Shown here: piece by piece, positions 9,005 to 23,369 of the stretch | Numbering within the stretch: the first letter of the stretch is position 1 | Layout of the letters: the number at the start of each line of letters is the position of its first letter | Source of the DNA: a virus | Length of the DNA: 64,000 nt | Reading direction: 5' to 3' (one strand) | IMG/VR virus record: IMGVR_UViG_3300041586_000126 | Coordinates: 23,193 to 87,192 of that record | Translations under genes and position numbers: made by a program | Notes under the pieces: model-generated | The model's input: the letters and a program-made list of their open reading frames with translations, nothing else | The model's database searches: none | Told to the model about the DNA's origin: nothing

Positions 9005-9685
9005 ATGATAAATAAAAGTGTTTTGATATGGGCTGGCTACTATGATGATAGGTGGAACGCAACAAATTGGATTGAAGGTGGGATTAATGATAGCGAGTAT
9101 TCTATAATTAAATTAGCCTATAAACTCCAAAGTAAAGGTTATGATGTAACAGTAGCTGGTAATGTTAAAAGTGAACTGTTATGGGGTATCAAATGGGTTA
9201 ATGAAGATATACTTTTATCAAATCGGGGTCCTAGAGGTTTAAATGAAGCATTCGATTTAAGAGTAAAAGATCACTATAACATACTAATAGGATGTAATTA
9301 TATACACTTTATAAGACATCTAGAAGATGTAAATATCTCGTTTGATAAGGCATACTTTTGGATGCATCAAGATGGGTATTACCCTTGGTATAAAGGAAAT
9401 GAATTAAATCAATGTAAAGATTATTTTAAACACCCCAAACTAAAAGCTATAATAGGGATAAGTAAAACCCACGCTAAAACACTTAAAAAAAGTGCAAAAA
9501 ATATATTCCACTACACACCCCTAGATTCTAATAAATACATACACTTTATTACACATCCACTTGATTTAAAGGATAATACGGAATCACAAACCCCACCATT
9601 AATGAACGAAACACTACATATGTGGTTAGAAAAATCAAATTGGGATTTGACCATGAATGAATGGATTAGTATGTTTGAGAATTAA
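9005..9685 (+). CDS. GT-B N-terminal-domain protein (internally truncated glycosyltransferase)
   Basis: GGINDSE...LAYKLQSKGYDVTV and FWMHQ motifs present; no E-x7-E donor-binding domain. Confidence 0.55.
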   Translation: MINKSVLIWAGYYDDRWNATNWIEGGINDSEYSIIKLAYKLQSKGYDVTVAGNVKSELLWGIKWVNEDILLSNRGPRGLNEAFDLRVKDHYNILIGCNYIHFIRHLEDVNISFDKAYFWMHQDGYYPWYKGNELNQCKDYFKHPKLKAIIGISKTHAKTLKKSAKNIFHYTPLDSNKYIHFITHPLDLKDNTESQTPPLMNETLHMWLEKSNWDLTMNEWISMFEN

Positions 9686-9706
9686 AAATAGTAATGCATG
9701 TCATAT

Positions 9707-9738
9707 TTGGCTCCCCGCAATAGGGTTCGTATATTTAC
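9707..9738 (+). promoter_or_regulatory. Early-type promoter in front of the cassette array
   Basis: TTGG-N19-TATATTTAC. Confidence 0.75.
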
Positions 9739-9760
9739 ACATAAGTTAATAAATATTATC

Positions 9761-9892
9761 ATGAGCGGAAATACAAAGTTTTTTAATAGGGTGCTTTGCA
9801 TACAAAATTATTATGATATATATAATGAAGTTTATTTTTATAGGTTTTGGGTGCTTGGATTTTACTTTGATACTGACAAAAATTCTTTATAA
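9761..9892 (+). CDS. Small hypothetical protein (43 aa)
   Basis: ATG after the promoter; the TAA stop lies inside the TTATAAC box of hairpin element 1. Confidence 0.5.
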   Translation: MSGNTKFFNRVLCIQNYYDIYNEVYFYRFWVLGFYFDTDKNSL

Positions 9893-10092
9893 CGGTTTGG
9901 GTATGGTTAGATTTTTAACGGATTAAATATAAAAATATGAATGAAGAAGCAGAATTTGCAGTAGAAATACTGAAAGAATACGCAAAACAAAACCAGGTAT
10001 TACCAAGAAGTACTTGTGACTTATCTAAATTAGAGGAATGGCTAATTATAGAGCTACTTAGAGTTAAAAATTAACTATACCCGTTGTTGTGG
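9887..10092 (+). repeat. attC-like inverted-repeat element 1 enclosing an ORF
   Basis: Left arm TTATAAC-GGTTT-GGGTATGGTTAGATTTTTAAC (9887-9919); right arm GTTAAAAATTAACTATACCC-GTT-GTTGTGG (10063-10092). 20-bp stem with one G.T pair and one extrahelical G. Confidence 0.8.
9937..10074 (+). CDS. 45-aa protein inside hairpin element 1
   Basis: MNEEAEFAVEILKEYAKQNQVLPRSTCDLSKLEEWLIIELLRVKN*, with an A-rich leader. Confidence 0.65.
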   Translation: MNEEAEFAVEILKEYAKQNQVLPRSTCDLSKLEEWLIIELLRVKN

Positions 10093-10160
10093 GTACGTTG
10101 TGCGAACATAATTGACATCACTTAGATAATCATAGTGATAGAATGATACTAAAGCATTGT

Positions 10161-10372
10161 GCCTAACAAATTAGAATATGAATAGTAAAAATTACGGCTT
10201 ATGGATCAATTACCTTTAGACTTTAACTTGGTTATGTTATTATATGACCTTGATGAATTATTGACATTATTAGAAACCGATACTAAAAAATGGCAATGGT
10301 TAATAGATGAACTGAACAAACAATTAAAAGAACAGATTGAGTAATTTTTATTATTTATATTCTGTGTTGTGC
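10161..10372 (+). repeat. attC-like inverted-repeat element 2 enclosing an ORF
   Basis: Left arm GCCTAAC-AAATT-AGAATATGAATAGTAAAAATTAC (10161-10195); right arm GTAATTTTTATTATTTATATTCT-GT-GTTGTGC (10341-10372). 23-bp stem with two G.T pairs. Confidence 0.8.
10201..10344 (+). CDS. 47-aa protein inside hairpin element 2
   Basis: MDQLPLDFNLVMLLYDLDELLTLLETDTKKWQWLIDELNKQLKEQIE*; the stop is at the start of the right arm. Confidence 0.65.
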   Translation: MDQLPLDFNLVMLLYDLDELLTLLETDTKKWQWLIDELNKQLKEQIE

Positions 10373-10485
10373 GGTCTTTTTAATGTCGACACAACGCATT
10401 GTATAAGAAATGTTGATGTTAGCACCGATGTTCATTTGAAATACTAAATGGCTTTTTATTGGAATGGAATTAGTTAGAAATTAAG

Positions 10486-10740
10486 ATGAAAACAGAAGGA
10501 AATATGATTACGGATTGGTTAGACCAAAACCGAAACCCAGAAATAGACCGTTTTATTGAAAAAAACCTTGCCATTACTGAAAAAATTCGTTTGGCATTAG
10601 CAGAAAAAGAGTGGAATTGGTATGGTAATGAGGTGAGGGAGTTAGAAGATATAAAAAGAATAAATAAAGAGGTTATGGGAAAAATGACTTTTACAAATCA
10701 ATTCTTCAAGAACATTTTAAACACAACCCACATAAAATAA
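10486..10740 (+). CDS. Hypothetical protein; N-half resembles the pre-HTH region of XRE-family regulators
   Basis: NPEIDRFIEKNLAITEKIRLALAEKEW followed by unrelated sequence. Confidence 0.5.
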   Translation: MKTEGNMITDWLDQNRNPEIDRFIEKNLAITEKIRLALAEKEWNWYGNEVRELEDIKRINKEVMGKMTFTNQFFKNILNTTHIK

Positions 10741-10796
10741 TACGTATATATTTAACTTAATATGGCTAATATTAGTAATATTGGAATTAGAACATT

Positions 10797-10982
10797 ATGG
10801 AGAAGAATAGAAAAGAAATCATAGCAAAATTAAATATACTTGCTAATGGTAATAAAAGCCAATGGTTTGCAGATGCCACTTGGAGAGCAGAAAATAGTGT
10901 ATGGTTGATAAAATTACAAGCCACCACTATAAAAATTTTAAGGGCATTAAGAAAGAATAATACACACACAAAACAACATTAA
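10797..10982 (+). CDS. Hypothetical protein resembling the pre-HTH region of XRE/HigA-like antitoxins
   Basis: SQWFADATWRAENSVWL...IKILRALRKNN, then a stop shortly after. Confidence 0.5.
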   Translation: MEKNRKEIIAKLNILANGNKSQWFADATWRAENSVWLIKLQATTIKILRALRKNNTHTKQH

Positions 10983-14664: not shown

Positions 14665-14676
14665 AATTTTGTTGTT

Positions 14677-22655: not shown

Positions 22656-23369
22656 ATGGAGGAAATAAAAAAAACACGCAAACCTAAGAGCAAAAATTAC
22701 TTCACCCAGGATACTGAAAATGCTATTGTATTATATAATAATACTGAGTGTTCTGATATGAGAAGTAGAATATACGATAAAGAAATCCACTATGCATTCT
22801 TTAAACTTACTCAAAATATCATTCATACTTTTAAATTTTATCACACTGAAGTAGAAAATTTAGAACACCTACAACATGAGATAATTATTTTTCTTTTATC
22901 AAAGATCCATAAATTTGACCCAACACGAGGTACTAAGGCGTATTCCTATTTTGGTACTATAGTAAAACGTTGGTTAATATTATATACCACTAAGAATTAT
23001 TCTAAAAAGATAAAAAAAGTACCCATCGATATATTAATGGATGAAAACTCGACCCATACTTGTAAAATTGGTGACGAAGAAGTCAAAACAGATCTTGACA
23101 AATATATTGAAATCTATTTGGAGCATGTTACTAAAAACATTTATACATTTTTCCCAAAAAAGAATGATGCTCAAATTGCGGATGCTATATTAGAATTATT
23201 TCGTAAAAGAGAAATTATTGAGATATTTAACAAAAAAGCACTTTATATTTACATTCGTGAGATAGTTGATGTAAAAACTCCTAAAATTACCAAAATAGCT
23301 AATAAGTTACACGTTATTTTTAAACAACAATACATACCTTTTTTAGAAAATGGGTATGCTAAATTCTAA
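22656..23369 (+). CDS. Phage RNA polymerase sigma factor (T4 gp55-like, probably late)
   Basis: Region-2-like KFDPTRGTKAYSYFGTIVKR; immediately precedes the structural module. Confidence 0.75.
   Translation: MEEIKKTRKPKSKNYFTQDTENAIVLYNNTECSDMRSRIYDKEIHYAFFKLTQNIIHTFKFYHTEVENLEHLQHEIIIFLLSKIHKFDPTRGTKAYSYFGTIVKRWLILYTTKNYSKKIKKVPIDILMDENSTHTCKIGDEEVKTDLDKYIEIYLEHVTKNIYTFFPKKNDAQIADAILELFRKREIIEIFNKKALYIYIREIVDVKTPKITKIANKLHVIFKQQYIPFLENGYAKF

Follow-up and report, generated by a model that had tools for sequence, protein, structure and literature searches.

Why should two very small phage genes each be enclosed by a long-range hairpin, and why should these hairpins end in boxes that recall the recombination sites of integrons? 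The question is raised by a 64,000-nucleotide (nt) stretch of viral DNA (hereafter the window), which covers positions 23,193 to 87,192 of the 87-kb IMG/VR record IMGVR_UViG_3300041586_000126. Here two consecutive elements, E1 (9885-10094) and E2 (10159-10376), each hold a conserved gene, of 45 amino acids (aa) in E1 and 47 aa in E2, with a helix of 20-23 base pairs (bp) around it. We interpret them, with a confidence that lies somewhat on the favorable side of even, as integron-like, integrase-less cassettes that carry their gene in the hairpin loop and whose site polarity in phages is inverted relative to the genes. The cassettes belong to a family that is common in the phages of Flavobacteriia and on the chromosomes of Flavobacteriaceae. 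Our case builds on the fold, the covariation of its arms, its strand polarity, the boundaries at which relatives have exchanged DNA and, across the family, a rule of complementarity that chains neighboring boxes together.

The sequence, the list of open reading frames (ORFs) and a repeat finder applied to 9500-10900 define the following features, which are given in window coordinates; those of the two elements were further located with the methods named.

9707-9747, plus strand: promoter-like site TTGGCT-N17-TATATT, also TTTG..TATATTTA; predicted, from a consensus scan only
9761-9892, plus strand: upstream ORF of 43 aa, with its ATG at 9761 and its TAA stop at 9890-9892, overlapping the AAC of E1
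9885-9893, plus strand: R'' box of E1, CTTTATAAC (AAC at 9891-9893); sequence and box-plus-stem detector
up to 9898, plus strand: 5' spacer of E1, GGTTT, 5 nt predicted to be unpaired; sequence
9899-9919, plus strand: 5' arm of E1 with the family motif TATGGTTAG; sequence, repeat finder, fold and family alignment
9937-10074, plus strand: ORF45, the cargo of E1, with its stop codon within the 3' arm
10063-10082, plus strand: 3' arm of E1 with the family motif TTAACTATA; sequence and repeat finder
10083-10107, plus strand: 3' spacer of E1, GTT (3 nt), then the R' box, GTTGTGGGT, from 10086
10108-10158, plus strand: short non-coding "body" that separates E1 from E2 and forms a local hairpin
10159-10167, plus strand: R'' box of E2, GTGCCTAAC (AAC at 10165-10167); sequence and box-plus-stem detector
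up to 10172, plus strand: 5' spacer of E2, AAATT; sequence
10173-10195, plus strand: 5' arm of E2 with the motif TATGAATAGT; repeat finder, stem scan and detector
10201-10344, plus strand: ORF47, the cargo of E2, with its stop codon at the beginning of the 3' arm
10341-10363, plus strand: 3' arm of E2 with the motif ATTATTTATA; repeat finder, stem scan and detector
from 10366, plus strand: R' box of E2, GTTGTGCGG; sequence
10366-10395, plus strand: "core" hairpin, made of the R' box of E2 (GTTGTGCGGTC), a T-rich 8-nt loop and the next R'' box (GTCGACACAAC)
10396-10449, plus strand: spacer GCATT, a degenerate 5' arm that has no partner (GTATAAGAAATG; about 10396-10413), then a remnant

A preliminary description of this DNA had recognized two elements with AAC/GTT boxes, an asymmetric spacer, a 20-23 bp stem and one ORF of 45 or 47 aa apiece, an upstream ORF that ends in the first AAC box, a self-complementary linker and a third left arm without a partner; the sequence agrees on all of these points. 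The helix of E1 has 20 pairs, including one G.T, and one bulged base, and that of E2 has 23 contiguous pairs, two of which are G.T. Inverse boxes end both elements (TATAAC and GTTGTGG in E1; CCTAAC and GTTGTGC in E2). The accompanying claim that every non-Watson-Crick pair is G.T is correct within the 23-bp helix of E2 but fails when 30 positions are considered, as A.G and T.T mismatches lie outside that helix. The core hairpin at 10366-10395 is a diverged copy of a widespread core, GTTGTATGTC-TTTTTTAATTG-CATACAAC.

Stems whose loops measure 60-400 nt were sought along every antidiagonal of the 87-kb record, with 40 dinucleotide shuffles as the control. The ungapped stem of E2 has the top score of the entire record (47) and exceeds every one of the shuffles, whose maximum is 42, so the concern that similar inverted repeats might often arise in shuffled AT-rich sequence does not apply to it. 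By the same measure the stem of E1 (score 30) is at chance level, with about 13 stems of that kind per shuffle; its gapped duplex energy lies at approximately the 0.1% quantile. Both stems appear in the minimum-free-energy fold of 9870-10430, which has z = -3.4 and is equaled by 0 of 100 shuffles. With a detector for the complete succession of AAC, spacer, stem, loop, stem, spacer and GTT, E1 and E2 are the only elements of the record that rise above the level of the shuffles.

The two elements are members of a much larger family. A search anchored on the arm motifs TATGnnTAG and TTAnnTATA recovered 50 non-redundant elements in uncultured phage contigs, against 4 in a scrambled-register control, and the conserved core is found in more than 70 viral contigs; a scan of viral contigs with AGAATATGAATAGTAA gave chance matches for the most part. 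Two phages in culture also have members: Cellulophaga phi19:3, with sites near record positions 14674, 15669 and 16035, and Polaribacter P12002L, which has the R'' box of E2, GTGCCTAAC, as well. The order of the parts does not vary: AAC, 5-6 nt, helix, loop, helix, 3 nt, GTT, with the AAC no more than 9 nt upstream of the helix in 41 of the 50 elements and the GTT 3 nt downstream of it in 40. The helices measure 16-23 bp and the loops 32-266 nt. Each variable helix position is occupied by three or four types of Watson-Crick pair across the 50 elements, while two fixed positions are G.T in 41 and 46 of them, always with the G on the 5' arm. When arms are matched with their own partners, the paired fraction of the variable positions is 0.92; with swapped partners it falls to 0.53, and it reaches at most 0.61 in 2000 permutations. 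What the window had suggested, arms that differ in sequence and retain one architecture, is the mark of a structure-conserved, sequence-variable family with strong covariation. In the adjacent units of locus L088 that we inspected, the variable arm positions are unpaired across the core, and for this reason the cargo-enclosing helix must be the selected one. Complete small ORFs are enclosed by 16 elements, with the start codon 8-27 nt past the 5' arm and the stop in or at the 3' arm; another 15 have an ORF that starts in the loop and runs through the 3' arm, with all three frames in use; and the remaining 19 hold no ORF, some of their loops looking like structured RNAs.

These elements have an intrinsic polarity. 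The reading of the helix that is rich in G.T coincides with the one that has the long spacer on its 5' side (59:8, and 29:5 for the mirror image). In E1 and E2 this is the plus strand, which has RNA folding energies of -45.6 and -48.8 kcal/mol, as against -32.6 and -28.8 kcal/mol for the other strand, and it folds better under DNA parameters as well. Folding strand and sense strand coincide in 45 of 49 phage elements, and the elements in the complete genome G002 are oriented with the local direction of the genes. The earlier proposal of a folding sense strand is borne out by the polarity of the G.T pairs and the 5' spacer and by the plus-strand energies.

Comparison of the stretch with related loci and with aligned salt-lake metagenome contigs shows gain, loss and swapping of exactly these units, at or near their AAC/GTT boxes, as anticipated for a system that shuffles genes. 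One relative (L001) is approximately 99.5% identical across E1 and E2 and then diverges at 10372-10449, where it has instead about 390 nt with a 97-aa ORF; in contig X3 the corresponding joint inserts 393 letters between 10371 and 10449. No significant helix surrounds this extra ORF in L001 (z = 0.35). A 40.6-kb salt-lake contig has only 10166-10371 in common with the window, without a single difference, and two further loci (L006 and L182) share only 10166-10384. Three others (L009, L010 and L102) share only 9902-10079, and in these the outer three pairs of the E1 helix have changed in a compensatory manner, from GGG/CCC to TTA/TAA. Shared cassette copies start at 10166 and the sequence shared with other contexts stops at 10371; these breakpoints, like those at 9886, 9890 and 10088, each lie a few bases or less from an AAC/GTT triplet. 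Directly after E1, at 10086-10107, there is also a tandem 11-nt near-repeat, GTTGTGGGTAC (the R' box of E1) followed by GTTGTGCGAAC. It resembles two successive GTT boxes and may be the scar of an earlier exchange.

The family extends to the hosts. Four Bacteroidota genomes contain the core in its exact form, and two Flavobacteriaceae chromosomes have arrays of 10 and 12-13 sites, each entirely on one strand and without an integrase:

G006:C2:122270-137688, one strand: integrase-less host array
G007:C1:294514-316053, one strand: integrase-less host array

The ORF sequence between the sites of these arrays lies overwhelmingly on the strand opposite to the sites (9216 as against 1320 nt in one array and 17349 as against 0 nt in the other). 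The helix of the host arrays hence cannot be a feature of messenger RNA (mRNA), because its G.T-bearing form is on the template strand of the genes, as it is for the attC sites of integrons. A further regularity concerns neighbors: the R' box of a site complements the R'' box of the site that follows at 5-6 of the 6 variable positions in 43% of neighboring sites, and in 11 of 12 cases in the G007 array, as compared to 3.7% of random pairs and 8% when the two boxes of one site are set against each other. Past the AAC/GTT triplets, indeed, the two boxes of a site pair no better than random ones (1.97 versus 1.95 of 6). Such chain complementarity is the signature that crossover within the triplet leaves in integron arrays. 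Among the host sites, six of those in G006 have near-identical arms and loops of 76-80 nt, akin to the uniform repeats of sedentary chromosomal integrons, and the cassette genes of the host arrays include an amidohydrolase and a 7TMR-DISM/LytTR protein.

These observations are what an integron-like cassette would be expected to display. Under this interpretation each unit would be a folded single-strand site, composed of R'' and R' boxes, an asymmetric spacer (5-6 versus 3 nt) and a cassette-specific helix of 16-23 bp with two G.T pairs. In the phage form the part between sites would have shrunk to 8-70 nt; the gene occupies the hairpin's variable loop and lies on the folding strand. Units are swapped among phage genomes at the AAC/GTT triplets or a few bases away from them, and we infer that a tyrosine-type recombinase, provided by the host or by another element, would act on the folded plus strand while it is single-stranded, with the crossover falling inside the triplet.

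The likeness to attC sites and to the clusters of attC sites lacking integron-integrases (CALINs) is correspondingly detailed (PMC9892861, PMC9024848). Both have AAC/GTT inverse-core boxes and an imperfect hairpin that is retained in structure and not in sequence, and in both an unpaired spacer, here predicted at 5-6 nt on the 5' side and 3 nt on the 3' side, appears to separate box from helix. Both have one preferred folding strand, form one-strand arrays, and begin a unit with a GTT box that is complementary to the AAC box at its end. The host arrays are like attC arrays even in the placement of genes between sites and in having the template strand as the folding strand. The window departs from them in that its genes lie inside the hairpin loop, with an inter-site part of 8-70 nt, and in that its sites are 204-210 nt long, whereas attC sites span 57-141 nt and the P12002L site 60 nt. 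The folding strand of the phage elements is the sense strand (45/49), unlike the template strand of attC, and their polarity is marked by the two fixed G.T wobbles and the asymmetric spacer rather than by conserved extrahelical bases. CALINs have already been reported in virulent phages, P12002L included, by Qi et al. 2023 (PMC9892861), and the compact 60-nt member of our family in that phage is the predicted P12002L_attC1 of the same study (PMC9892861). Neither the gene-in-loop form nor the G.T marks nor the breadth of the family seems to have been described before; a full-text literature search for the core motif came back blank.

Several results weigh against this interpretation. The most direct concerns the enzyme: the tyrosine recombinase domain PF00589 is absent from the 87-kb record (which is 54% complete), in keeping with the earlier remark that the window has no visible integrase, from five element-rich phage records, one of them a 100% complete 39-kb genome, and from DNA up to 800 kb away from either host array. 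Lacking PF00589, the host arrays resemble CALINs at most; neither IntI nor attI nor Pc was found with the elements. P12002L_attC1, moreover, was the only one of six tested sites without verified IntI1 junctions (PMC9892861). The family helix has no conserved extrahelical base (E1 has one bulged base), and the chain rule is broken within the window between E1 and E2 (1/6) and only partial after E2 (4/6). Arms and cargo can also be separated: L164 has the same E2-type arms around another ORF, the 5' arm and leader of E1 precede a different ORF in L109, L079 and an X6 contig, and L007 carries ORF47 without arms. As arms and cargo move separately, ordinary recombination that is not specific to the boxes is needed too. 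Finally, neither an excised circle nor a single-stranded intermediate was seen among the metagenome contigs compared. The idea from which this work started, a single-strand hairpin system for the capture and shuffling of genes with its cargo in the loop, accordingly keeps its family, its cargo in the loop, the exchange at the boxes and the chain rule, and stays without a recombinase and with a failed IntI1 assay of a relative.

Other candidates for the enzyme fared no better. Cellulophaga phage phi19:3 encodes a 418-aa tyrosine recombinase, gp036 (L199:8630-9886), whose gene follows the small-gene array on the same strand, with about 500 nt separating it from the last upstream site. It has no homologue in the other phage loci, was rejected as a recombinase of the family, and is probably the integrase of phi19:3 itself. 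Xer-like host recombinases, used as tblastn queries, gave hits in L049 and L188 alone, two loci that do not belong to the family and match its pattern by chance. A fuller version of the integron-like reading can be entertained tentatively, as a possibility that falls short of being probable: an undescribed exchange system shared by Flavobacteriia phages and their hosts, with a non-IntI recombinase, phage sites whose polarity is opposite to that of attC, genes in either loop of the folded cassette, and some ORFs translated through the site (AINYTRCC, LYSVSQ, KLTIPVV).

The alternative that survives best moves the selected helix from DNA to RNA. It holds that the helix acts in the early transcript as an expression frame, bracketing a small cistron by pairing its 5' untranslated region with its 3' end and thereby insulating, stabilizing or processing it, for instance through RNase III, while the boxes, core and arms serve as short homologies for phage recombinases. 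The agreement of the folding strand with the sense strand in the phages, and with gene direction in G002, is just what this predicts. G.U pairs are normal in RNA, the RNA fold is far stronger on the plus strand, and the placement of start and stop codons in the 16 whole-ORF units fits a frame built around a cistron. One frame is, in addition, reused for unrelated ORFs, and the 5' arm with its leader travels as a module of its own. The host arrays tell against it, for there this helix, its polarity unchanged, is antisense to the genes, and the cassette-specific GTT/AAC complementarity across genes of 0.5-5 kb has no rationale in RNA. In the 15 elements whose 3' arm is part of a longer ORF, cleavage there would destroy the message, and 19 elements have no enclosed ORF. 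No Bacteroidota-type promoter or canonical terminator lies inside the element, and the record has no RNase III gene, although the host enzyme would serve. We therefore judge an RNA frame unlikely as the primary function while according it real weight. Even if the elements are integron-like cassettes, the strand that folds in phages has the sense of the mRNA, and the helix must form in the phage transcript too; because it is transcribed, some effect on the transcript is unavoidable, and the expression of the enclosed gene is probably affected as a secondary consequence.

Two known systems illuminate this alternative. The promoter early stem-loops (PeSLs) of T4-type phages (Arbiol et al. 2010, PMC2839356; Comeau et al. 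2014, PMC4122927) likewise present a short conserved intergenic motif between small accessory early genes, as the conserved core does here, with motif-bounded indels and replacements between close relatives and single small ORFs as portable modules. A PeSL consists of a sigma-70 promoter and a terminator stem-loop and acts via homologous recombination (PMC2839356, PMC4122927). The window elements, in contrast, have neither a recognizable promoter nor a canonical terminator, the sole promoter-like site being upstream at 9707-9747, and they differ further in the cassette-specific long-range helix of each gene, the chain-complementary boxes and the occurrence of sites on host chromosomes. The helices cut by RNase III, such as the early sites of T7 and the leader-trailer stems of ribosomal RNA, resemble ours in having 20 bp or more with an asymmetric internal loop, and ribosomal RNA operons also place the product in the loop of a long-range stem; in the present elements the helix on the sense strand is a predicted one. 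They differ in that the host copies lie on the non-transcribed side of genes and many 3' arms fall within coding sequence.

A transposon-based account is distinctly improbable. If the elements were non-autonomous transposons of the type of miniature inverted-repeat transposable elements (MITEs), the arms would be terminal inverted repeats recognized by some transposase or nuclease, and the passenger DNA would be free to vary. The inverted termini with a conserved 10-nt motif, the passengers that vary or are missing altogether (loops of about 40 nt) and the many copies per genome in phages and hosts alike are all compatible with this. Yet the non-conserved arm positions covary pairwise, a pattern that protein binding to duplex DNA would not call for; the flanks form an inverted pair (AAC...GTT) instead of a direct target duplication; the chain rule ties neighboring units together; and no transposase-like gene occurs in the flanks examined. 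MITE-like repeats such as the repetitive extragenic palindromic (REP) sequences, the bacterial interspersed mosaic elements (BIMEs) and Correia-type repeats are similar as numerous short intergenic palindromic units, some of them transcribed and folded in RNA, but they have conserved arm sequences and lack cassette-specific covariation, variable gene cargo and an AAC/GTT chain rule.

The weakest alternative, chance inverted repeats in AT-rich DNA or the by-product of a repeated palindromic intergenic element that does not pair across genes, can draw on the E1 stem taken alone and on the partial complementarity of the consensus arm motifs of neighboring units across the core, but is already refuted by the shuffles that E2 surpasses, the scrambled-register control (4 versus 50 elements) and the partner-swap test, the covariation across the cargo being family-wide and the variable arm positions of the inspected L088 units (2081/2395) unpaired across the core.

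Three narrower ideas about the core and the boxes were rejected. As a mimic of a CRISPR repeat, the exact core would be out of place in the four Bacteroidota genomes, where it is found once per locus and without repeat-spacer arrays. As a promoter, the consensus element, read by eye, has neither the -33/-7 elements of Bacteroidota nor a properly spaced sigma-70 pair. An intrinsic terminator that encloses the gene was discarded as the main function on account of the two boxes of a site, which are no more complementary to each other than random boxes are. A T-run does begin 9-12 nt past the GTT in 25 of 39 cases, a count that is biased by the T-run-containing pattern with which the loci had been fetched.

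As to the cargo, ORF45 and ORF47 have seven homologues each, at 62-96% identity. The codon differences between ORF45 and its counterpart in L009 are 11 synonymous and 4 non-synonymous, and those between ORF47 and its counterpart in L007 are 8 and 3, respectively. They are genuine conserved protein genes, for which searches of Pfam and PHROG returned no match. Apart from two ordinary transfer RNAs, Rfam recognizes nothing in the window or across 11 element-rich loci, and ARAGORN calls no transfer RNA in any cargo loop, although some loops contain T-arm-like hairpins. The upstream ORF comes right after the promoter-like site, and its DNA matches positions 2560-2703 of Flavobacterium phage 11b, which carry no annotation, at 70% identity.

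Elsewhere in the family, L088:2000-6400 (IMGVR_UViG_3300024348_000060) is a run of about 12 small genes, almost all of them framed by family sites. Several of its ORFs are translated through sites, whose nucleotides set the peptides AINYTRCC (in two paralogues), L(Y/S)SVSQxxELL (in three) and KPLTIPVV, and one 3' arm has the same sequence as that of E1, read in another frame. The ORF-less loops of about 75-85 nt in L045 (3925-4040), L125, L098, L106 and L039 are GC-richer and structured; in that of L045 two T-arm-like hairpins are accompanied by a closing stem that resembles an acceptor, and those of L125 and L098 are homologous, with compensatory changes. Neither ARAGORN nor Rfam recognizes any of these loops. 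Loop lengths in the family cluster near 48, 83, 155, 190, 227 and 260 nt, that is, in steps of roughly 36 nt, which may simply be the usual sizes of small ORFs.

No part of phage genomes varies more, or is less well understood, than the small accessory early genes, and the way in which they move is known in detail only for the PeSLs of T4-type phages. The elements described here add a second structurally defined unit of shuffling, which is widespread in marine and salt-lake flavobacterial phages, is common to host chromosomes and has an integron-like logic without the integron integrase. Their gene-in-loop form indicates that a folded recombination site can hold cargo within its hairpin; standard attC finders probably miss such sites because they expect sites of 57-141 nt. 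Since Cellulophaga phage phi19:3 and Polaribacter phage P12002L, both carriers, are in culture, the questions of the recombinase and of DNA versus RNA can be taken to the bench. If the fuller exchange system that we tentatively entertain were true, recombination at ORFs that are read through a site could also shuffle the N- and C-terminal parts of proteins in frame.

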